64,000 bases of DNA from Escherichia coli (GTDB lineage: Bacteria > Pseudomonadota > Gammaproteobacteria > Enterobacterales > Enterobacteriaceae). The notes below the pieces were generated by a model. That model searched no databases. It was not told the origin of the DNA and worked only from the letters and a program-made list of their open reading frames with translations. The position numbers and the translations under genes are program-made. Numbering within the stretch: the stretch's first letter is position 1; each line of letters opens with the position of its first letter. Below, piece by piece: positions 2,095 to 15,393 of the stretch. The stretch lies in NCBI RefSeq assembly GCF_048403405.1, contig NZ_CP183129.1; one strand, 5' to 3'.

Positions 2095-3990
<1,896 letters not shown>

Positions 3991-4019
3991 TAATCCTCCC
4001 GCCAGAAGAATAAAACATA

Positions 4020-4051
4020 GCCCGGTATACAAGTGTATACCGGGCTTTTTT
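4020..4051. terminator. Intrinsic terminator hairpin between convergent parE and the receptor gene
   Basis: GC-rich inverted repeat cccggtataca/tgtataccggg followed by a T6 run. Confidence 0.6.
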
Positions 4052-4053
4052 GA

Positions 4054-6195
4054 TCAAAATTCCATTTTCACCGTGAATTGCACTTCACGCGGATCGCCAA
4101 TCTGATTCCCCAGATTATTTGTGGCGATGGAAGAGGTGTAATACGTTTTATCAAACAGGTTTTTGACGTTTAATTGCAGTGTGACCGGATACTGCAATTT
4201 CATTTTGTATGCGGCGAAGGCATCGGCAACGAAATAGCCTGGCAGATAATAGTCAGCCCCATTGGTTGCCGAACGACGGCTTACGCCATGTCCACCACCG
4301 CCAAACGTCAGTGTGTTATTGCCTGGCATGTTATGAATGTCATAGGTCAGGAATAGCGAACCGGTATGACGAGGAACATTCGGCAATGGTTTCCCTGCAT
4401 AATCAGGATCTTCCAGAACCTTAGCATCGGTATAGCCGTAGCTGGCAATGATATTAATGTTTTCAGTTAATGCTCCCGCAAGGTCGACTTCTACCCCTCT
4501 TGAACGAACGCGGCCTGCCGTTTTGGCGATGGTTTCATCACCAATACTTTCGGTATACAACACGTTACGTTTATGGATATCAAACAGCGCAATATCTGCG
4601 GTGATACCATCGAACAGCTCGAATTTTGCCCCGACTTCGTAAGCATTAGATGATTCCGGTGGAAGATCTCCGATGTAGCTGGCAATTGACGATTGCGGCA
4701 TAAATGTTTGCGAATAATTAGCAAATAAGGATACCGATGGCGTCAGTTTGTAGACTAACCCCAGTTTGGGCGTCCATTGTTCATCGCGGCTGTCAGTATT
4801 GACATTAAAAGGACGGCCTTTACCCGCATACTGCGTGTAATACTGATAGCGGATCCCGGCGACGGCAATCCAGTTATCGGTCAGATAGAGCGCGTCCTGT
4901 GCATAAGCTGAGTAGCTCTCCTGTTTGATCGTCTGATCGCTGTCCGACGCCGAGACAGTTGTGCATTTGCTGGTATTGCCGTAAACAGGGTTGTAGATAT
5001 TGAAATCTTTAGCGTTTTTACAGCGAATCATATCTGTGCGCAGAAGATCATAATATTCATATGACACCCCACCCAGAATCTCATTATAGAACCCAGCAAT
5101 ATCAACATTCCCTTGCAGATCCGCACGAGTAGCATGCATACGCTGGGTAGATCCCTGAGTTGCATCAACACGCCGTGTCAGCGTTCCTGTCGTTGCATCA
5201 TACGCGGTAACACGAGCCTGATTATCGCCGTATTTATCCTGGCTGTAGCTGTAATCAAAGCGCGCTGTCCACTGGCTATTGAGATGATATTCTGCGTTGA
5301 GTTGCGCCAGATCGGACTGACCATCTGTAATATTAAACGGTTCGTCAAAACGTATTTTTCGATCAACGTTTACGGGCTGTTTCGTCGTAAGGTCGAAAAT
5401 CGTTCCACGATCGAACGGAGTTTTATAGTCCCGATGGGAATAGAGCATGGTTACTGTTGCATTATCACCAAACCAGGTGAGTGACGGGGCAATAAATGTA
5501 CTGCGCTCTTTACCGAAGTTTCGCCAGTAATCTTCATCCTGCACTTCCCCCGTCAGGCGGTATGCCAGCTGAGTGCCTTCAATGGGACCTGTGATATCAA
5601 GTTGCCCAGTGCCTCCGCCAAAACTGGAGGACGTGGCTGAGACAGAACCATGGAATGTTTTTTCCGGGCGCTTGGTCACGACGTTAATCAATCCACCAGG
5701 ATCGAGAATGCCATACAGCGTGGAGGCCGGACCTTTTAGCACTTCCACACGTTCTGTGGCGGCGTTGAAACTGCGAGGAAGTACAGTTCGCAGGCCGTTG
5801 GTCATGATGGAGCCATCCCGGTTAGCACCAAACCCACGACGTACAAAGGCGTCCTGAGTTCCGCCTAATGTATTGGTCTGTACCACGTTACTGACGTTAT
5901 AAAGCGCTTCATCCAGCGTCGTTGCATTCTGATTTTCCAGAACCTGATCGCTAACCGTATTGACCACCTGCGGGATATCCAGCATCGGCATATCGGTTAA
6001 TGTCGCCATGGAGGTGCTCAGAGGTTGATAACCATCGGTCGCCTCAGTTGCGGTATTTGCATCCGCTGTAACAGTGATTGTTTCGCCATCTTTGGTCGTT
6101 GCAGTGTCGGTTGCATGAATCATTGGTGCTGCAAAGAGCAGTGAAAAGAGCGCCCGACCTTTGATTCCTGAGAATGAAGGTGTGAACTTAGCCAT
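4054..6195 (-). CDS. TonB-dependent siderophore outer-membrane receptor
   Basis: 713 aa; signal peptide; TonB-box-like ETITVTA; plug and beta-barrel features; C-terminal aromatic residue (ends ...KMEF); not part of the K-12 parE-ygiN junction as I recall it. Confidence 0.9.
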   Translation of the reverse strand: MAKFTPSFSGIKGRALFSLLFAAPMIHATDTATTKDGETITVTADANTATEATDGYQPLSTSMATLTDMPMLDIPQVVNTVSDQVLENQNATTLDEALYNVSNVVQTNTLGGTQDAFVRRGFGANRDGSIMTNGLRTVLPRSFNAATERVEVLKGPASTLYGILDPGGLINVVTKRPEKTFHGSVSATSSSFGGGTGQLDITGPIEGTQLAYRLTGEVQDEDYWRNFGKERSTFIAPSLTWFGDNATVTMLYSHRDYKTPFDRGTIFDLTTKQPVNVDRKIRFDEPFNITDGQSDLAQLNAEYHLNSQWTARFDYSYSQDKYGDNQARVTAYDATTGTLTRRVDATQGSTQRMHATRADLQGNVDIAGFYNEILGGVSYEYYDLLRTDMIRCKNAKDFNIYNPVYGNTSKCTTVSASDSDQTIKQESYSAYAQDALYLTDNWIAVAGIRYQYYTQYAGKGRPFNVNTDSRDEQWTPKLGLVYKLTPSVSLFANYSQTFMPQSSIASYIGDLPPESSNAYEVGAKFELFDGITADIALFDIHKRNVLYTESIGDETIAKTAGRVRSRGVEVDLAGALTENINIIASYGYTDAKVLEDPDYAGKPLPNVPRHTGSLFLTYDIHNMPGNNTLTFGGGGHGVSRRSATNGADYYLPGYFVADAFAAYKMKLQYPVTLQLNVKNLFDKTYYTSSIATNNLGNQIGDPREVQFTVKMEF

Positions 6196-6295
6196 TTAGT
6201 CTGTTATCCCAAAAACTCACGGATTGTCGTGAGTGAAAATTGTTTCTTGTTGCTCACTAAGCACTATCCGTTTGTTATTTCACCATCGGATATGT

Positions 6296-6314
6296 AATTG
6301 AGAATCATTCAACC
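6296..6314. promoter_or_regulatory. Possible Fur box in the divergent receptor/ABC-transporter promoter region
   Basis: gtaattgagaatcattcaa matches about 12 of 19 positions of the Fur consensus GATAATGATAATCATTATC, with a conserved AATCATT core; weak on its own. Confidence 0.3.
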
Positions 6315-6568
6315 ATGCGGTGATGTAGTAGTAAATGAGAAATAACAAAAAATTGCTACATGTGTTTTTATGAGAGGTTAATGCAATTCAATTGATGGTA
6401 ATTTATTAATATTTAATGGTTTTATTTTTATCTTTAAAAATATTTCACCTGTTATTTACCTTGTTTTTGTATGGATTTTAACTTCTTGACTACTACATTT
6501 TGTGGCGTCAAACTCTCAAAGGAGAATGAGTTTTATTTTTGTTTGTCTTTGATTAAGTTGGCGTACAC

Positions 6569-7378
6569 GTGGCACATAACGCAAAAGGGCAGGGGCTGAT
6601 CCTCGACAATGTTTCTGCCGGGTATCACAAGAAAATCATTGTTGATGGTGTTTCTTTCTCCGTTCCCACAGAAAAAATGACCGTTCTGGTTGGGGCAAAC
6701 GGCTGTGGAAAGTCGACGTTGCTCAGCACCATTGCACGTATCTTGCAACCTATGGGCGGCTCGATATTGCTGGATGGTAAAGCGATTCACGAGCAACCAA
6801 CGAAAGCGTTATCCCGTAGACTTGGGATCTTGCCGCAGTCGCCATTATTGCCGGAGGGCTTAACCGTTTATGAACTGGTGTCGCGTGGGCGTTTTCCCTG
6901 GCAGAATTTCATTCGTCAATGGAGCGACGCCGACGAGCAGGCGGTAGAAGAGGCCCTGAAATTAACCGGTACGCAGGAGTTTGCACATTTACCTGTTGAA
7001 AAACTTTCTGGTGGGCAGCGCCAGCGTTGCTGGATTGCGATGGTGTTGGCGCAAAAGACGCCTTATATCCTGCTGGATGAACCCACAACCTGGCTTGATT
7101 TACGTTATCAGGTTGAAATTCTTGAGTTATTACATGATTTAACGCGTCATCACGGGCGTACAGTCGTCGTGGTGTTGCATGATCTGAATTTTGCCGTCAA
7201 TTATGGCGATACGTTGATATTTTTACGCCAGGGGAAAGTGGTGCGTGTGTTGAATGAGGGGGAGCATTGCACGCCTGAGCTGGTAAAAGCTGTCTTTGAC
7301 GTTGATGTTCACGCATCAATAAATCCTCTGACGGGAAAGCCGTTCTTCATGCCGTTTCGTGGTGTAGAAAAAGTATGA
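6569..7378 (+). CDS. ABC transporter ATP-binding protein (iron-siderophore importer type)
   Basis: Walker A GANGCGKST, signature LSGGQRQR, Walker B ILLDEPT; GTG start. Confidence 0.9.
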   Translation: MAHNAKGQGLILDNVSAGYHKKIIVDGVSFSVPTEKMTVLVGANGCGKSTLLSTIARILQPMGGSILLDGKAIHEQPTKALSRRLGILPQSPLLPEGLTVYELVSRGRFPWQNFIRQWSDADEQAVEEALKLTGTQEFAHLPVEKLSGGQRQRCWIAMVLAQKTPYILLDEPTTWLDLRYQVEILELLHDLTRHHGRTVVVVLHDLNFAVNYGDTLIFLRQGKVVRVLNEGEHCTPELVKAVFDVDVHASINPLTGKPFFMPFRGVEKV

Positions 7379-8358
7379 TGCGCACAGGGCTGGTTACTGT
7401 AATTTTCCTCGCCTTACTGCTGGTGGGATGCGTGGTATATCCAGGGATTGGTGCCCGATTTATTGCACCACAAACGGTGTTGCAGGCATTTCTTCATTTT
7501 GAACCGCAAAACTTCGATCACAACGTAATTGTAAGACTCCGTTTGCCGCGTTTAGCGGCAGCATTGCTTACCGGTGCTTCTCTTGGAGTTGCTGGTGCTT
7601 TGTTGCAGGCTGTCATTCGTAACCCATTGGGGGAGCCACATATTTTAGGCTTAAATGCCGGAGCCGCTCTTGCTGTCGTTGCTGCCACTGCGCTTGGGCT
7701 GGCCTTTCCGGTTGGACGCCCACTGCTGGCATCTACGGGCGGCGCGTTATTGTTCCTGTTGATATTGCTGCTTTCCTCCGCAGGGCGTTCAGGGTTAACG
7801 CCAATGAAAGTTACTTTATGCGGCGTGGCGCTATCGGCGTTCGTGTCCTCAATAACGGCTGCAATCCTGATTCTTGACGAACAAACACTGCTGGCGATGC
7901 GGACATGGCTAGCAGGTGATTTAGCGGGGCAGGATTGGGTGACGCTGGGTACGTCCGCCTGGTTTTCTCTGGGGGGGGTTGTGTTAGCCATTTACCTTGC
8001 GCCCTCTCTTAACATGTTGGCACTGGGTGATCGCATGGCGCAGGGGCTGGGCGTCTCGGTACTCCGCACGCGAACATTCACTCTGCTTGCGATCGCGTTG
8101 CTCTGTGGCGCAGCCGTATCGATTGCTGGCCCCATTGGTTTTGTCGGTCTGCTAGTACCGCAGATTGTCAGGCGTCTGGTATCAGCGGATCTGCGCGTTC
8201 TGCTCCCTCTTTCAGCTTGTGTCGGCGCGCTTTTGTTATTACTGGCAGATATTATTGCCCGGACGCTTTTCACGCCCCATGAGTTAGCGACCGGTGTCAT
8301 GACGGCGTTAGTTGGTGCGCCTGTTTTTGTCATTATGGCGACGAGGATGTTCAAATGA
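7375..8358 (+). CDS. ABC transporter permease, FecCD/BtuC family
   Basis: 327 aa polytopic membrane protein; 4-bp overlap with the upstream ATPase gene. Confidence 0.9.
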   Translation: MMRTGLVTVIFLALLLVGCVVYPGIGARFIAPQTVLQAFLHFEPQNFDHNVIVRLRLPRLAAALLTGASLGVAGALLQAVIRNPLGEPHILGLNAGAALAVVAATALGLAFPVGRPLLASTGGALLFLLILLLSSAGRSGLTPMKVTLCGVALSAFVSSITAAILILDEQTLLAMRTWLAGDLAGQDWVTLGTSAWFSLGGVVLAIYLAPSLNMLALGDRMAQGLGVSVLRTRTFTLLAIALLCGAAVSIAGPIGFVGLLVPQIVRRLVSADLRVLLPLSACVGALLLLLADIIARTLFTPHELATGVMTALVGAPVFVIMATRMFK

Positions 8359-9404
8359 GTCGGATAATGAACGTCGGGCTACGTCCACTACGTGTTGGTA
8401 AGTTTTCGACACTGGTACGCCCTAAAAATCTGGTGTTGCTTGGTGGGCTGTTTCTGTTTGCGGTTGGAATACTGATATTCGGTCTGATGCATGGTTCTTT
8501 TTCTGTCCCGGCATCGGAAGTAGGACGAGCGTTGTTTGCTCCAGAAAACGTAAGCACAGACGCACGTTATATTGTGCAGGATATTCGCTTGCCGAGAGTC
8601 ATCATGGCATTGCTATGCGGAGCCATGTTAGGTATGGCGGGGGCCGCGATGCAATCCATTGCGCGTAACGGCCTTGCCGATCCTGGTTTAATCGGCGTCA
8701 AAGAAGGATGTAGCGTGGCGGTGCTGTGGCTGATTTTCCAGTTTCCAATGCTGGGAATGTTCTGGCGTCCAGTGGCTGGTCTTGCTGGTGGCTTGTTGGT
8801 GGCTTTAATCGTGATTTTTTGTGCACGCGATATTTCCCGCCCGCGATTTGTTCTGATTGGTATTGGTGTTTCCTGGTTTTTCGCCGCCGGTATCGGTGTA
8901 TTTATGACCACTGCAGATGTTCGAGATGTACAAACTGCATTGATGTGGTTATCGGGAAGCCTGCATGCAGCTAACTGGATGTTAGTCGGTATTTCAGCCT
9001 GTTGGATGTTGCCAGCCGCTCTTTTATTGCTGTTCACCGCCAGGACGGCGGATATCGCTCTGCTTGGTCATCAGGTTGCAACCGGGTTAGGGGTGAATAG
9101 TTCTCGTCTGGCGTTGTTACGTGTCGCCGCACCAATAATCCTGACAGCCGTCTGCGTTTCGTGTGTTGGTAACATCGGTTTTGTCGGATTGATAGCACCC
9201 CATATATCACGTTTTATTCTACGTGGCGGGCAGACGACATTACTGCTGGGGAGCGCCGTATCGGGGGCGTTGTTAGTCATCCTGGCGGATAGCATTGGTC
9301 GTTTGGCTTTTTTGCCTTTGCAACTGCCTGCCGGAATCATTATTTCATTGATTGGTGGACCATTCTTTTTGCTACTGCTCTGGCAGCGCAGGAACAGTTT
9401 TTAA
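8355..9404 (+). CDS. ABC transporter permease, FecCD/BtuC family (second subunit)
   Basis: 349 aa polytopic membrane protein, paralogous to the preceding permease; 4-bp overlap. Confidence 0.9.
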   Translation: MSRIMNVGLRPLRVGKFSTLVRPKNLVLLGGLFLFAVGILIFGLMHGSFSVPASEVGRALFAPENVSTDARYIVQDIRLPRVIMALLCGAMLGMAGAAMQSIARNGLADPGLIGVKEGCSVAVLWLIFQFPMLGMFWRPVAGLAGGLLVALIVIFCARDISRPRFVLIGIGVSWFFAAGIGVFMTTADVRDVQTALMWLSGSLHAANWMLVGISACWMLPAALLLLFTARTADIALLGHQVATGLGVNSSRLALLRVAAPIILTAVCVSCVGNIGFVGLIAPHISRFILRGGQTTLLLGSAVSGALLVILADSIGRLAFLPLQLPAGIIISLIGGPFFLLLLWQRRNSF

Positions 9405-9414
9405 TGGGAGTTAT

Positions 9415-10362
9415 ATGCGTTTATTTTTTTCTCTGCTGATACTGTTGTCATTCTTTGCCCGCGCGACAGAACCTGTTCAGGTCTTTACTGATGATTTAGG
9501 GCGCAAAGTCACTGTTCCTGCTCATCCAAAGAGAATTGTCTCTTTACACGATCTTGATATCACTATTCCTCTGATTGAGCTCGGTGTACCTCCTGTCGCC
9601 AGCCACGGACGAACCCGGCCTGACGGTAGCCATTTCATTCGATCAGGCGCGTTATTGACAGGTGTCGACTTTGATAATTCATCGATCGCTTTTATTGGCA
9701 CCGCTGATATTGATATTGAAGCGATTGTGGCGGCAAAGCCTGACCTGATCATCACAGAACCGACCCGTAATACGCCCATTGAACAACTGGAAAAAATTGC
9801 GCCCACGGTGAGCATTGATCATCTCAAAGGAGGCGCGCCAGAAATCTACCGCAAGCTGGCAGAACTTACAGGAACGCAGTCGCAGCTGGCGATACTTGAA
9901 CGCCGCTATCAGGCACAAATCAATGCGCTGAAGGCGACGCTGGACAGCCAAAAAATAACGGTATCGGTGATTCAGGCAAATCAGGGAAAAATTAATGTGA
10001 TGCATAGCTATCATTCGCTGGGGCGGGTATTACGCGATGCTGGTTTTCGCTTTCCGCCGCTGATTGAGAGCATTCCTGAAGGTGGGCGAATGGATGTGAG
10101 CGCAGAGCGTTTACCTGAACTGGATGCCGATTTTGTTTTTGCAACCTGGCGCGGTGACACCGGTGGTAAACCTCAGGATGAGCTGGCAGCAATGGAAAAA
10201 GTCATGCCGGGATGGTGTCAGTTTCTGACGGCCTGTCGTTCCGGGCGCTATGTGCTGATTTCTCGTGAAGAGGCGATTTCTAACTCCTTTGCATCTCTGG
10301 GGCTGATGGCTGCGCAGATACAATCACAAATTGCGGGACGACCTCTACCGGAGGCTAAATGA
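9415..10362 (+). CDS. Periplasmic siderophore-binding protein of the ABC importer
   Basis: Start moved to the in-frame ATG at 9415, which has a GGGAG ribosome-binding site and begins a typical signal peptide (MRLFFSLLILLSFFARA); the tracked ORF begins upstream at 9352. Confidence 0.85.
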   Translation: MRLFFSLLILLSFFARATEPVQVFTDDLGRKVTVPAHPKRIVSLHDLDITIPLIELGVPPVASHGRTRPDGSHFIRSGALLTGVDFDNSSIAFIGTADIDIEAIVAAKPDLIITEPTRNTPIEQLEKIAPTVSIDHLKGGAPEIYRKLAELTGTQSQLAILERRYQAQINALKATLDSQKITVSVIQANQGKINVMHSYHSLGRVLRDAGFRFPPLIESIPEGGRMDVSAERLPELDADFVFATWRGDTGGKPQDELAAMEKVMPGWCQFLTACRSGRYVLISREEAISNSFASLGLMAAQIQSQIAGRPLPEAK

Positions 10363-11246
10363 TCCAGAAAGACAAAACGCGGGTTGATATTTATGGTGAG
10401 CGTTTTCGCACTCGCGCGAGTCAGTTAACGCCTGGGTTAAGAACTGTCGCAAGCTACATTAATGAGCATCGTGAAGTGGTACTCGAGCAAACGGCGATGG
10501 AAATTGCGGCCACGTTGAACACTTCCGATGCCACAGTTATCAGGGCTATACAGGCTCTGGGGTTTGCCGGGCTGCGTGATCTGAAACGCACACTGGAACA
10601 GTGGCTTGGTCCAGCCCTTAGTTCCAGCGAAAAGATGTCTACGACGGTGAGTAACTTGACGAGCGATGTTAACACCGCAATCGACTTTGTTCTTGAAGGG
10701 CATTTGTATACTTGTAATGTCCTGTCAGAGCCTGAAAACCGCCACGCGCTTGCGCAAGCTGTAGCGTTGTTGGTGCAGGCACGGCAAGTCGCTATTTTTG
10801 GCATTGGCGCTTCGGGTATCCTGGCGGACTATACCGCACGACTATTCAACCGCATAGGTTTGCCTGCCACGGCACTAAACCGTACGGGTATTGGCCTTGC
10901 CGAGCAACTGATCGCGCTTCAACGTGGCGATGTTCTGATCATGATGGCGCAAAAATCTGCGCACCGGGAAGGGCTGACAACGCTTCGTGAGGCGAGGCGG
11001 CTGGGGATCCCTGTTATTTTGCTGACAAACGCGCTGGATTCACGTTTTAGCAAAGACGCCAGTATCGTGATTCATGTTCCGCGCGGGGATGAAAGGGGGA
11101 AAACGCCACTACATGGTACGGTATTGTTGTGCCTGGAAATGATTGTTTGGTCGGTGGCTTCCGCGATGCCGCAGCGTGCGGTTAAAACCATTAAGCGAAT
11201 TAACGATTTCCATCGGGGTTTGAAAACGGGAAGAAAGAATGGCTAA
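10359..11246 (+). CDS. RpiR/MurR-family transcriptional regulator (helix-turn-helix plus SIS domain)
   Basis: 295 aa; N-terminal HTH and C-terminal sugar-isomerase-like domain pattern; start overlaps the binding-protein stop (ATGA). Confidence 0.8.
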   Translation: MIQKDKTRVDIYGERFRTRASQLTPGLRTVASYINEHREVVLEQTAMEIAATLNTSDATVIRAIQALGFAGLRDLKRTLEQWLGPALSSSEKMSTTVSNLTSDVNTAIDFVLEGHLYTCNVLSEPENRHALAQAVALLVQARQVAIFGIGASGILADYTARLFNRIGLPATALNRTGIGLAEQLIALQRGDVLIMMAQKSAHREGLTTLREARRLGIPVILLTNALDSRFSKDASIVIHVPRGDERGKTPLHGTVLLCLEMIVWSVASAMPQRAVKTIKRINDFHRGLKTGRKNG

Positions 11247-11254
11247 TCTGACCT

Positions 11255-11635: not shown

Positions 11636-12217
11636 TTAACCAAAAATTTCCACAAGATGCTTGCGATATTCTTCAGTATAGCGGGGAACATCAGGCATTT
11701 TTATCACGTCATTAGCGATAAATGTCGGCAGCGGTTCCATGCCAAGGAATTGGTTTGCTTTATGGAACGGCAGATACACACCGTCAACGCCAACGCCGTG
11801 GAAGAACTGATCTTTTTCGGTGAAGGCTTCCATTGGTGCGTTCCAGGTCAGAGAAAGCATATATTTTTTGCCCTGTACCAGGCCGCCGGAACCGTATTTT
11901 TTCGACGGATCTTTGCGGGTACGACCATCGCTGGCATACAGCGTCCCGTGACCTTCGGTGAATACATCATCAATGTATTTTTTCACTGTCCACGGCGCGC
12001 CCATCCACCAGCCTGGCATCTGCCAGATCACCACATCAGCCCAGAGAAAGTTTTGTACTTCCGCTTTGACATCGTAGTCGCTGTCGGCGCGAACGATGCG
12101 GACATCATGCCCGAGGTCGCGCAACGTGCCATCCGCGACTTCGGTCAGGGTGTCGTTCAGTTGACCATTGGAGTGGGCGAATTTTTTCGCGCCGTTGATA
12201 ATCAGGATGTTGCTCAT
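11636..12217 (-). CDS. mdaB: NADPH:quinone oxidoreductase MdaB
   Basis: 193 aa; flavodoxin-like quinone reductase; synteny. Confidence 0.93.
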   Translation of the reverse strand: MSNILIINGAKKFAHSNGQLNDTLTEVADGTLRDLGHDVRIVRADSDYDVKAEVQNFLWADVVIWQMPGWWMGAPWTVKKYIDDVFTEGHGTLYASDGRTRKDPSKKYGSGGLVQGKKYMLSLTWNAPMEAFTEKDQFFHGVGVDGVYLPFHKANQFLGMEPLPTFIANDVIKMPDVPRYTEEYRKHLVEIFG

Positions 12218-12278
12218 TTTTTAACCTCAAGGTGAGACGTTTGTCGACTATAGTACGTCACAGAGCGGTACGGTGAAA

Positions 12279-12318
12279 TTAGCAAAATGTGCAAAGTCTT
12301 TTGCTAATTTAGCAAAAG
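12279..12318. promoter_or_regulatory. Candidate operator: perfect 10-1-10 palindrome plus a third half-site, upstream of mdaB
   Basis: cttttgctaa-t-ttagcaaaag at 12298-12318 is a perfect inverted repeat; a third copy, ttagcaaaat, lies at 12279-12288; located 60-100 bp upstream of the mdaB start codon. Confidence 0.4.
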
Positions 12319-12466
12319 TCTGATCTTGCTCTGATTCACCGATGCGGGATAAATATTTTCTGAAAATGACAATACTGAAATCAACTTCCTATAAGTTCCC
12401 ACAGGAGAGATGTATTATGTAAATGATAAAGTAGTTTTTCGGAAAAAATAATCATGGAGAATATAT

Positions 12467-12946
12467 ATGTCAAATATCATATACTTATCAATTAAAGGAA
12501 AAACACAAGGTTTGATCTCTGAGGGCTGTGGTTCGTATGCATCTATTGGTAATAAATATCAAATAAATCATGTGGATGAAATTTTTGTTTTACAGTTCGA
12601 CCATTCTTTAAGTCGAGAATATAATGTAGTGCATCATCCCATAAAATTTTACAAGCCAATAGATAAATCCTCTCCTTTATTAAATGCTGCTCTTTCTGAA
12701 AATGAAGAGTTATCAGCTGTATTTAATTTTTATAGAATTAATTCTGGCGGTTGTATTGAAAGGTTTTACACAATTGAATTGCAAGGGGCATATTTATCGA
12801 ATATTCTGACTTGTTATCCACACTCAATTACACATGCGGGTAATCAACCGGAAGAGGTCATTGTTCTTAATTATAAAAATATAACATGGAAGCACCATAT
12901 CGCGAGTACGGAATCATATAGCTGTTGGGAAGAAAGGATTTTTTAA
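12467..12946 (+). CDS. hcp: Type VI secretion Hcp-family protein (orphan hcp)
   Basis: 159 aa; Hcp-like blocks IYLSIKGKTQGLISEGC, HHPIKFYKPIDKSSPLL and NYKNITWKHH; GGAGA ribosome-binding site 6 nt upstream; AT-rich gene. Confidence 0.8.
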   Translation: MSNIIYLSIKGKTQGLISEGCGSYASIGNKYQINHVDEIFVLQFDHSLSREYNVVHHPIKFYKPIDKSSPLLNAALSENEELSAVFNFYRINSGGCIERFYTIELQGAYLSNILTCYPHSITHAGNQPEEVIVLNYKNITWKHHIASTESYSCWEERIF

Positions 12947-12948
12947 AT

Positions 12949-13659
12949 ATGAAAAGCGATCTCACTATAAAAAATAGATATTGTACAATTCCACAAACGA
13001 AGTTCCGTAAATGGGATGAAATGGACGTTTTACTCTGGAAGTTAGGAAAAAATGATTCGCGTCGCCGTTCAGGAGTATATTATTTAAATGCTTATAAAGA
13101 TGCATATGTACAATATAATAGGGACAAAATAATTAAACATGCATATGCCGCAGGGATTCGTCCAGAGTTATTGGGCGGCGTGGCCTGGATTGAGTCAGGA
13201 GGTATGCCTGAAAATTATAAGTTTCAGATATATGAAACAAAAAGAATGATCGGATCGTTAGATATGCCTGAAAATAAAACATCATTTGGCTCAATGGGTA
13301 TACAAATACGAACCGCAGCGATTACTCTAGGCCTTGACCCTTCAGAATTAACTACCAGAAATCAGTTAGAGTTAGCGACATGCCTGATGGAAGATGATTT
13401 TACCTTTAAAATTGCTGCTACTCATTTAAGAGATCTTGCCCTTTTTGATTATCCCTCTTCGGCAACACTGTATATGACGAATGAGCAGTATATTATGGCT
13501 GGTATTAGATATAATCGTGGTGTTGAACGAGATTTGGGTTTTTTTATTTATTTAATTAATAATTTGCCTGCGCGTGATACAGATGATTATAAATTCATCT
13601 CTTATGGTATGAGGTTGTTAGAGATTAGAGAACATATCAAAAAATTGATCAATGAGTAA
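12949..13659 (+). CDS. Hypothetical protein with lysozyme/lytic-transglycosylase-like motifs; candidate Hcp-associated cell-wall-targeting effector
   Basis: Start set at the ATG at 12949 (GAAAGGA ribosome-binding site) 2 nt after the hcp stop; motifs WIESGG, FGSMGIQI and IRYNRG resemble the soluble-lytic-transglycosylase E-S / GLMQ / AYNAG pattern; function is inferred. Confidence 0.5.
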   Translation: MKSDLTIKNRYCTIPQTKFRKWDEMDVLLWKLGKNDSRRRSGVYYLNAYKDAYVQYNRDKIIKHAYAAGIRPELLGGVAWIESGGMPENYKFQIYETKRMIGSLDMPENKTSFGSMGIQIRTAAITLGLDPSELTTRNQLELATCLMEDDFTFKIAATHLRDLALFDYPSSATLYMTNEQYIMAGIRYNRGVERDLGFFIYLINNLPARDTDDYKFISYGMRLLEIREHIKKLINE

Positions 13660-13665
13660 TCAGAG

Positions 13666-13995
13666 ATGTTAAAAAAACAACTACTATCAATATTTGAAGC
13701 ACTATTATACATAATGCTTACTTATTGGTTAATAGATGCTTTTTTTGCTTTCAATAAGTATGACTGGATGCTTGAGTCGGGAGACAATATTTGCAGTATA
13801 CCTTCCGTTTCAGGCGAAGATCGTATATTGCAAGCAATGATTGCAGCATTTTTTCTTCTGACGCCACTTATTATTCTTATCTTAAGAAAACTCTTTATGC
13901 GGGAAATGTTCGAGTTTTGGCTATATGTATTCACGCTCGTTATTTGTTTGGTTTGTGGTTGGTGGCTTTTTTGGGGACGGTTTATATTTTGCTAA
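13666..13995 (+). CDS. ygiZ: Small inner-membrane protein (about 3 transmembrane helices); K-12 YgiZ occupies this position; candidate immunity protein
   Basis: 109 aa with three hydrophobic segments; starts 7 nt after the preceding gene; K-12 has the about 110 aa membrane protein YgiZ between mdaB and qseC (recollection); the immunity role is inferred. Confidence 0.6.
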   Translation: MLKKQLLSIFEALLYIMLTYWLIDAFFAFNKYDWMLESGDNICSIPSVSGEDRILQAMIAAFFLLTPLIILILRKLFMREMFEFWLYVFTLVICLVCGWWLFWGRFIFC

Positions 13996-14005
13996 TAGTA
14001 AAATC

Positions 14006-14033
14006 TATGAGAGTCGTTTTAACGGCTCTCATA
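14006..14033. terminator. Hairpin between convergent ygiZ-like gene and qseC
   Basis: Inverted repeat tatgagag(tcg)/(cgg)ctctcata with a 6-nt loop; a U-tract follows only on the minus-strand transcript. Confidence 0.4.
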
Positions 14034-14043
14034 GACAGAGAAG

Positions 14044-15393
14044 TTACCAGCTCACCTTCGCCTCAAATCCACCTTGTTCCGCATTCCCAAACTCAACATT
14101 CATGCCATGCAATTTGGCGATTCGCTGGACAATCGATAGCCCAAGTCCACTGCCGGTAGCGGTTTGTCCGGGTGGGCGATAGAAGCGTTCGCCAATTCTC
14201 GCCAGTGCCTCTGGCGTCACACCGGGGCCGTTATCCCTCACGATGAAATTTTCGGCATTCAGCGTGACGTCCACCACGCTGCCCTGTGGACTGTAGCGCA
14301 CGGCGTTATCCAGAAGGTTTCGTACCAACAAACTTAGCAACAGCGGTTGTCCGGTGCGTTTGATGCCGTGGGCATTGAGTGTCAGTCGCACGTCAATTTT
14401 CGCCTGCTGCGCCGTGTGGTAAATATCCATCACCGATGATTGCAGGAGATCTTCAAGCGGGATCTCCGCGACGTCCTGAAGGTTATCCAGTGAGTCCAGC
14501 CGCGATAGCGTGAGCAGTTGATCAACCAGACGAGTAGCACGATCGATTCCGGAATGTAATTGAAGCAGCGCTTTTTTCCGCGCCTGCGGATCATCGTCAG
14601 AGAGCTGCGCAACTTCGGTTTGCACTTTCAGCGCCGTTAACGGGCTACGTAGTTCGTGAGCTGCGTCGGAGGTAAAACGTCGTTCACGAACCATCATCGC
14701 ATGTGTGCGGGCGAACAGTTGATTCAACGACTCAACCAGTGGACGCACTTCGCTGGGTACGCCCGTCGCGTTTAGTGGTTTTTCCGAGTCAGGGTCACGC
14801 ATACGTAGTGCCAGCGCCAGTTTGTTCAGCGGCGCGAGTTCACGACCCAGTAGTACCATCATGATGATTAACATAATCGGCAGTGCGACAAGCCACGGGA
14901 TCAATTGCCCGGCAACAATCGCCAGCGCCATGTCTTCGCGGTATTCCCATTCCTGACCAACAACGATGCGATATTTGCCATCAGGTGAGGTCATCCAGAC
15001 AAAACGCCAGGGATCGTCTTCACCGACCAGTTGCCCGTCAGCAAAACCTTCCCGTTGATAGCTATAGGGAATATCTTCTCCGTTATCGCCATCGTTAAGG
15101 ACCATTCTGCCGTCGTGGGTAAAGATGGCAAAGGTCAGCGCATCGTCATCAACATGACCGTGTTTTAATTTATTTGGCGTCTGTGCCATGCGATCTGCCG
15201 CGTTGATTTCGTTGAGATCGAGCGTACTTAACCGCTTGGCAAACAGCATCAGTTGGGTGTCGAACAACTCATCGACGTTATCCGTTGTTTGTTTCCAGGC
15301 GACAAAGCTGGAAAGCAGCCAGGTCACTGAGGCCAGAATTAAAAAGATTAGCGTCAGCCTGACTCGCAGACTAAGACGTTGGGTAAATTTCAT
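14044..15393 (-). CDS. qseC: Sensor histidine kinase QseC
   Basis: 449 aa; two transmembrane segments; H-box HELRSPL; ATPase domain; 4-bp overlap with qseB. Confidence 0.95.

Follow-up and report, generated by a model that had tools for sequence, protein, structure and literature searches.

Within a 64,000-nucleotide stretch of an Escherichia coli chromosome (contig NZ_CP183129.1 of assembly GCF_048403405.1; hereafter the window, to which all positions refer), the plus-strand gene at 12949–13659 encodes a 236-residue protein, here called the toxin, whose conservation, predicted structure and profile comparisons point to a lysozyme-like (GH23/SLT-like) domain lacking a signal peptide. Our reading, to which we assign a probability of roughly two in three, is that this protein is an antibacterial cargo effector of a secretion system of type VI (T6SS) residing in a mobile hcp–toxin–immunity cassette, and that the product of the following gene, YgiZ, protects against it. 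The toxin would be made in the cytoplasm without an export signal, would be carried by a dedicated Hcp encoded 2 bp upstream and would be injected into the periplasm of neighbouring cells by a T6SS whose genes lie at another place in the genome. There, its lysozyme-like domain would cleave the MurNAc–GlcNAc bond of the glycan strand, with E82 acting as the general acid and S112, Q119 and Y188-N189-G191 lining the sugar-binding groove, thereby weakening the wall and leading to lysis. YgiZ, a predicted three-helix protein of the inner membrane, would shield the producer and its kin at the periplasmic face, where its conserved parts, a Y-x-W-M loop after the first transmembrane helix (TM1) and two cysteines, would be exposed.

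That the protein is a toxin, as the original prediction proposed from the letters of this stretch, is supported at the sequence level by the company that its catalytic-type domain keeps. A search of 1.84 billion cluster representatives retrieved 311 relatives at E<=0.001, and in many longer proteins the conserved core (query residues about 20–200) occupies the C-terminal end. Among 68 such longer relatives, Pfam at E<=0.001 recognizes eCIS_core, the core domain of extracellular contractile injection system (eCIS) proteins, in 11, OmpA in five, PAAR in two (three at E<=0.1) and RHS, WXG100, Hcp and PG_binding_1 in one each. A single catalytic domain appended to a variety of trafficking modules is the signature by which polymorphic toxins are recognized (Zhang et al. 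2012, PMC3482391), a survey among whose listed families the present one does not appear. Since the domain sits as cargo at the C-terminal end of PAAR, Rhs, eCIS, WXG100 and Hcp proteins, and since a small immunity-like gene lies downstream of it, it is, judged by these architectures, a polymorphic toxin domain. Some relatives also match Ntox3 in Pfam; since Ntox3 has been described in eCIS toxins as an all-beta domain (PMC3482391), we take it to be probably a different part of those proteins.

The open reading frame is intact, and its product is identical to RefSeq WP_000834027.1, a 'hypothetical protein'; RefSeq and the N-termini of the homologues both bear out ATG 12949 as the start, the longest mechanical reading frame beginning at TTG 12925. 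At least 1000 public contigs carry exactly this protein sequence, every source calling it hypothetical or uncharacterised, and the intact frame is likewise present in a cluster of 2565 members (>=90% identity) found on at least 1000 contigs. The three motif strings that had been read from the sequence are all present in the order claimed, namely GVAWIESGG (motif I; residues 77–85, 13177–13203 on the plus strand), which holds the predicted catalytic acid E82 (13192–13194), SFGSMGIQIRT (motif II; residues 112–122, 13282–13314, plus strand), a beta-hairpin with S112 and Q119 that is the putative counterpart of S...GLMQ, and AGIRYNRG (motif III; residues 184–191, 13498–13521, plus strand), the counterpart of AYNxG. 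The series goes beyond chance: in a 56-sequence alignment that extends down to about 25% identity only E82, G85, S112, Q119 and G191 are invariant, and all five fall within the 28 residues of these strings. A wider alignment of 169 sequences retains E82, G85 and G191 throughout, S112 in 168 and Q119 in 167, and within motif III it retains R187 in 163, Y188 in 160 (with Phe in nine others) and N189 in 161.

Two refinements of the motif series follow from the same alignment. Of the 'catalytic Glu-Ser' initially proposed, the Glu stands without exception, whereas the Ser is specific to a clade (Ser in 25 of the 169 sequences versus Val in 94); and of the 'expected spacing', the order of the motifs was right while the spacing is canonical only in part, the distance from Glu to Gln amounting to 37 residues here (family median 42) versus 18 in E. 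coli MltE. S112 and Q119 accordingly sit 30–37 residues past the Glu, versus 9–18 in MltE, because an extra helix at residues 89–101 precedes the hairpin. The absence of a signal peptide agrees with a Kyte–Doolittle (KD) scan, which, no dedicated signal-peptide predictor having been run, revealed no hydrophobic N-terminal segment (maximum KD(10) of 0.53 in the first 55 residues; maximum KD(19) of 0.87 over the whole toxin). As a separate matter, C12 and C145 (12982–12984 and 13381–13383) are invariant in a 12-sequence enterobacterial and Variovorax alignment, and C145 also in one of 25 sequences; their conservation is lost in the wider family, and under the oxidising conditions of the periplasm the two may be joined by a disulfide peculiar to this clade.

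An AlphaFold2 model built on the 56-sequence alignment (pLDDT 94.5, pTM 0.90), for which an earlier model from 25 close homologues (pLDDT 61.5) was set aside, is lysozyme-like and mainly alpha-helical, as expected of an SLT domain, and places E82 at the C-terminal end of a helix spanning residues 72–82, with strands at 112–113 and 118–119. A Foldseek comparison of the predicted structure, which is one of the checks that the original prediction had named, ranks Tse3 and MltE first in the Protein Data Bank (PDB). The structural neighbours are all enzymes that cut polymeric peptidoglycan or chitin, and the hits include the Tse3–Tsi3 complex, Tge2-type effector–immunity complexes and a PliG complex. 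E82 pairs with the catalytic E64 of MltE both in a hidden Markov model (HMM) search and in hhalign, and hhalign also pairs RYNRG with the AYNxG of E. coli SLT domains. S112 and Q119, though near-invariant on the predicted hairpin, are not paired with GLMQ by hhalign, so that two members of the SLT motif series, the catalytic Glu and the AYNAG-like block, are upheld and the GLMQ-like block is inferred only. Taken together, the links to SLT in sequence are consistent but weak: the toxin does not match the SLT family HMM (PF01464), a Pfam SLT match appears in one of the 68 longer relatives at 4.6e-5 and in seven at E<=0.1, and UniProt names a few family members 'Transglycosylase SLT domain-containing protein'. 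Because neither the SLT HMM nor homology to the Tge proteins or their type of immunity protein places it in those groups, we file the toxin apart from both, in a distinct toxin family of the lysozyme superfamily that has its own immunity family, DUF2645, and that is neither a Tge member nor a canonical SLT. Other searches add a few isolated results: a single-sequence search of the PDB gave chance matches to light-harvesting proteins only; residues 179–225 give a weak profile match to phiKZ gp034 (PHIKZ034, PDB 9xps chain 1; E 0.41); the toxin strongly matches phrog_11932 of PHROGs, a group of unknown function (2.2e-29); and tblastn against 50,697 phage genomes found no relative.

With regard to the reaction catalyzed, the residues conserved in the family slightly favour a lytic transglycosylase over a hydrolase, because no acidic residue was seen to be conserved in or next to the beta-hairpin in the 169-sequence alignment. 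In goose-type lysozymes the second carboxylate is located in or next to that hairpin. The competing view, that the enzyme is a muramidase of the Tse3/Tge1 or goose-type lysozyme kind, would leave the biology unchanged and would differ in the products, which would be reducing MurNAc ends and no 1,6-anhydroMurNAc. The closest structure is indeed that of a muramidase, and D167 (acidic in 94% of the family) and H159 (conserved in 88%) are further conserved residues, but the lack of a conserved carboxylate at the hairpin and the similarity of the conserved motifs to those of family 1 lytic transglycosylases both speak against it, thereby making hydrolysis a possible but somewhat doubtful option.

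The link to type VI secretion arises from gene context. The toxin gene is preceded, 2 bp upstream, by an orphan hcp (tssD; 12467–12946, plus strand) encoding a 159-residue T6SS tube protein (TIGR03344 at 4.5e-59; 'Hcp family type VI secretion system effector' in RefSeq), which presumably carries the toxin. When one genome was taken for each species, a scan with the 12-sequence alignment as query yielded 36 related loci, with names on the Enterobacterales side (Pseudocitrobacter, Citrobacter, Pectobacterium, Buttiauxella, Photorhabdus, Xenorhabdus, Yersinia, Serratia, Morganella, Rahnella, Winslowiella and Enterobacter) as well as Variovorax, Curvibacter and a Burkholderiaceae metagenome-assembled genome. 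An hcp gene lies directly 5' of the toxin gene in 13 of these 36, and in our loci L002–L009 besides. The order and spacing of hcp–toxin–DUF2645 are kept on a Pectobacterium and a Chania chromosome, on Serratia plasmids and around a 45%-identical relative, in a different genomic neighbourhood each time, and a DUF2645 gene also follows a PAAR-fused relative. The retention of the cassette across genera points to purifying selection, and its presence on plasmids implies that it is horizontally mobile: the Serratia plasmids (75–112 kb; L003–L005) carry it beside RepA-type replication genes, and a 98%-identical toxin copy is found on a 354-kb E. coli plasmid record (plasmid records NZ_CP072744.1, NZ_CP074138.1 and NZ_MG591698.1). 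The toxin is thus linked genetically to T6SS parts by the adjacent hcp and by PAAR, Rhs and Hcp fusions, and delivery by a secretion system, which had been proposed on the lack of a signal peptide, gains contextual support from the upstream hcp, the recurring cassette and the set of PAAR, Rhs, eCIS, WXG100 and Hcp fusions.

The proposed antidote is encoded 6 bp downstream of the toxin gene by ygiZ (13666–13995, plus strand), whose 109-residue product matches PF10840 at 1e-10 over model positions 5–98 of 98, is named 'DUF2645 family protein' in RefSeq and has three hydrophobic segments predicted to span the membrane. A YgiZ-like gene lies directly 3' of the toxin gene in all 36 loci from other genomes. 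Distant relatives from metagenomes, both WXG100-fused and stand-alone, are likewise followed by a protein of 111–124 residues with three hydrophobic helices and a Y-x-W-M just past the first. In a set of 42 immunity-like proteins conservation is highest at C43, in the loop after TM1, and at C109, at the extreme C-terminus, each present in 40, and a Pro in TM2 is conserved as well. The N-terminus of YgiZ and its TM2–TM3 loop are positively charged and therefore fit an N-in/C-out arrangement, which suggests a three-helix topology with both cysteines and the Y-x-W-M loop on the periplasmic face; C43 and C109 could possibly form a periplasmic disulfide. Taken as a whole, this pattern makes YgiZ probably the antidote of the toxin. 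YgiZ otherwise figures in the literature as an inner-membrane protein of unknown function (PMC3950696), and ygiZ has been linked to sabinene tolerance in a BL21(DE3)-based study that mentions it 34 times (PMC7181518).

The distribution of the module within the species reinforces the idea of an immunity gene. Across 5426 complete E. coli genomes, the site between mdaB and qseC exists in three states, i.e. full module, ygiZ only and empty, the full hcp–toxin–ygiZ module being present in 1261 genomes (23%). About three quarters of the genomes therefore lack the toxin, and most of these keep ygiZ. In the ygiZ-only state, which is that of K-12/BW25113 and most other strains, window positions 12395–13687 are gone, and K-12 YgiZ remains identical to the window YgiZ at 99 of 109 residues; no recognisable similarity to a toxin remnant was found at the K-12 mdaB–ygiZ junction. 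In the empty state (O55:H7, O157:H7 and APEC O2-211), 5 bp replace positions 12322–14043, so that O55:H7 aligns only to 12200–12321 and 14044–14100. The retention of an antidote after the loss of its toxin is the classic orphan-immunity pattern, and K-12 ygiZ is an apparent instance of it. In 45 of the 5426 genomes a further pair, paralogous to the first, occupies the interval between yjeM and mscM (for instance at L010:2607–5028, L011 and L015:1708–4906, the L015 copy being broken by IS1 and IS630 elements), where the toxin is 36% identical to that of the window and its partner is a 'YjeO family' DUF2645 protein. At this site yjeO alone is left in K-12-type genomes (L061:1272–1897), and YjeO matches the immunity HMM at 1.7e-27; its neighbour YjeN was considered as a toxin remnant and ruled out.

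These patterns bear directly on the notion that the protein is no toxin at all but a housekeeping remodeller of peptidoglycan, of the EtgA, VirB1 or TagX kind, that opens the cell's own wall for the assembly of a secretion machine. An enzyme of this sort would have to reach its own periplasm, for which it has neither signal peptide nor membrane anchor; nor does a housekeeping role sit well with a domain that PAAR, Rhs, eCIS and WXG100 proteins bear as cargo at their C-terminus, with a strict pairing to a small immunity-like gene whose orphan copies outlast the enzyme, or with a cassette located outside any T6SS cluster. We find this explanation hardly credible.

Against the effector reading several observations must nonetheless be counted. 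As to the fold, Foldseek TM-scores versus solved structures are about 0.45; the best PDB profile matches, to MltE and Tse3, span the catalytic Glu but are not significant (E 0.16–0.4); the hhalign comparison with four E. coli SLT domains, for an E of 1.3e-4, carries a probability of only 53%; and the toxin has no Pfam match even at E<=10 and no NCBIfam model (PADLOC also returned nothing). As to delivery, the orphan Hcp is only 32% identical, over 107 aligned residues, to the core Hcp of the T6SS of the uropathogenic strain F11; an hcp neighbour is missing from 23 of the 36 related loci, the toxin/immunity pair standing there alone amid housekeeping genes, e.g. csdA, valS, yjeM or a TRAP transporter; no T6SS core genes were found within the window; in the module-positive strain CE10 (NC_017646.1) aspV and metV, the two sites examined (247057–248002 and 3299676–3301301), are both free of a T6SS cluster; and a toxin of 236 residues, by our estimate about 27 kDa, may in our own assessment be large for cargo of the Hcp lumen. 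As to the antidote, YgiZ is polytopic and exposes only about 25 loop residues, unlike the immunity partners of the Tsi3 and Tge2 type, which are soluble periplasmic proteins or lipoproteins.

The points on delivery lend themselves to another interpretation, in which the module is an unfired remnant in this genome, the toxin persisting by linkage to a selected ygiZ or the genome lacking a compatible T6SS. The missing core genes in the window and the situation in CE10 agree with it, as do the truncated and frameshifted toxin alleles that are common in E. coli data, the prevalence of genomes that have lost the toxin and kept ygiZ, and the location of K-12 ygiZ in a region reported to be repressed by H-NS (PMC3950696). 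Against this, the reading frame is intact here and in the 2565-member cluster, the predicted catalytic residues are all kept, the cassette is conserved across genera, and strain F11 combines the module with a complete T6SS at metV (NZ_CP076123.1, 3048453–3079438; tssA–C, E–H and J–M, hcp, two vgrG and PAAR), which makes a spent module quite improbable. The F11-type tssC occurs in 1320–1418 of the 5426 genomes. Public E. coli data also contain reading frames that join Hcp to the toxin, such as P0002 (325 residues, PF05638, 97% identical to the toxin; also P0005, P0188 and P0189), alongside the many truncated or frameshifted fragments (P0009, P0036, P0037 and others); both kinds could represent real fusions, decay products or assembly artefacts.

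The membrane-embedded antidote is the odd feature of the system, and it may mean either that YgiZ presents an inhibitory loop or that the substrate of the enzyme is lipid-linked peptidoglycan on the surface of the membrane. The latter possibility amounts to the same toxin–immunity module with a different substrate, namely lipid II or nascent strands bound to undecaprenyl pyrophosphate on the outer side of the inner membrane, DUF2645 protecting from within the bilayer by shielding the substrate or by capturing the enzyme there. In its favour, the partner is always a three-helix protein of about 100–125 residues with little exposed surface, from the T6SS-linked to the WXG100-linked relatives, and small polytopic immunity proteins are the usual companions of membrane-acting toxins. 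Yet the structural neighbours all cut polymeric substrates, the toxin has no hydrophobic or amphipathic segment for membrane binding (its KD(19) maximum being that given above), and lysozymes are known to be inhibited by a short loop that enters the cleft (PliG), so that a membrane-anchored loop could equally block an enzyme directed at the sacculus; we hence hold this alternative to be unlikely. A bolder formulation, which we likewise regard as unlikely, generalizes the point: DUF2645, including K-12 YgiZ and YjeO, would be an unrecognised family of polytopic inner-membrane immunity proteins against a widespread lysozyme-like toxin delivered by T6SS, type VII-like or eCIS machineries, and, because its antidote lies within the bilayer, the toxin would be directed at peptidoglycan that is still lipid-linked at the membrane surface and not at the mature sacculus. 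The effector reading with the glycan strand of the wall as substrate remains the one that we prefer.

Turning to the locus itself, window positions 12200–14100 are 100% identical to strain U1 and to six further complete E. coli genomes, in a chromosomal setting. The module forms an AT-rich islet (12322–14043, without assigned strand) between the convergent core genes mdaB and qseC, delimited by its dip in GC content (30–38.5% versus 47–55% in the flanks) and by the empty site of O55:H7. The tight packing of the three genes suggests an operon whose presumed promoter region is the mdaB–hcp intergenic region (12218–12466, plus strand), although a consensus scan of the locus for promoters and terminators gave no more than background. 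The first 195 bp of that region (12200–12394, corresponding to L013:601–795) are kept in K-12 ahead of the lone ygiZ, whose promoter is activated by BglJ-RcsB according to a study of H-NS-repressed loci (PMC3950696), and the promoter mapped in K-12 may for this reason drive the whole hcp–toxin–ygiZ operon in module-positive strains. Elsewhere in the window, at about 3000–11250 (573105–580297 of the U1 record), six genes lie between parE and ygiN, encoding a TonB-dependent siderophore receptor, an ABC ATPase, two FecCD permeases, a substrate-binding protein and a MurR/RpiR regulator. This iron-uptake island is presumably missing at that position in K-12, and we take it to resemble the Fit system of extraintestinal pathogenic E. 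coli.

Should the effector reading hold, these genes would represent a new and broad family of peptidoglycan-targeting interbacterial toxins spanning Enterobacterales and Burkholderiales, held in check by an unusual antidote, i.e. a three-helix membrane protein in place of a soluble periplasmic inhibitor. It would also give a function, as orphan immunity genes, to the long-uncharacterised K-12 genes ygiZ and yjeO, and it would mean that roughly one in four E. coli strains carries a weapon against which most of the others are immunised, with consequences for strain competition in the gut. If the toxin acted at the membrane surface, it would furthermore reveal a new point of attack for an interbacterial toxin of the glycosidase type. 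Caution would in any event be due in the laboratory: since K-12 carries ygiZ, and ygiZ also figures in the BL21(DE3)-based work on sabinene, toxicity assays in such hosts could be masked by the resident immunity gene.

Comparison with known systems places the toxin near, but outside, several of them. Tse3 (Tge1), the T6SS muramidase of Pseudomonas aeruginosa (PDB 4LUQ, 3WA5 and 4M5E), shares 14–15% identity with it in structural alignments and gives a profile E of 0.33, which is not significant, so that the likeness to Tge1–3 is one of structure and not of sequence; Tse3 is moreover about 400 residues long versus 236. Immunity to Tse3 is conferred by Tsi3, either a soluble protein of the periplasm or a lipoprotein, whereas the partner here is a three-helix DUF2645 protein and not of the Tgi type. 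From the family 1 lytic transglycosylases (MltE/EmtA, Slt70, MltC and MltD; GH23) the toxin differs by a helical insertion of roughly 20 residues between the Glu and the hairpin, by two further elements, a conserved W-x3-D-x3-W helix near the N-terminus and an extension at the C-terminus, and by the absence, in its family, of a conserved Ser after the Glu and of a Pfam SLT match; it is also cytoplasmic, with neither signal peptide nor lipobox, and is predicted to be a weapon rather than a housekeeping enzyme. Tse4/Tae17 of Acinetobacter baumannii is a T6SS antibacterial effector that, as its abstracts describe it, kills mainly by lytic-transglycosylase activity (PMC11796386; bioRxiv 10.1101/2021.03.04.433973), but the same descriptions set it apart as a VgrG-dependent protein of two domains, a lytic transglycosylase and an amidase or endopeptidase, with an immunity protein that, as far as those abstracts tell, is not DUF2645.

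The closest parallel in architecture is offered by the Hcp-linked auxiliary modules and Hcp-ET fusions of Enterobacteriaceae, orphan hcp–effector–immunity modules outside the main T6SS cluster having been described in E. coli and Pantoea (PMC5874247, PMC9796082, bioRxiv 10.1101/2024.03.05.583533). The arrangement is shared with hcp–toxin–ygiZ, but the papers on such modules in E. coli and Pantoea and on the Salmonella Hcp islands deal with other effectors and not with this toxin family, the mdaB–qseC locus or DUF2645. In the freely searchable full-text literature, which leaves out subscription-only articles, we found no paper that ties ygiZ, yjeO, DUF2645, the RefSeq accessions or the hcp islet between mdaB and qseC to type VI secretion or immunity. 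What the present analysis would add to these known systems is a toxin family, the membrane immunity family cognate to it, and an orphan-immunity role for YgiZ and YjeO of K-12.

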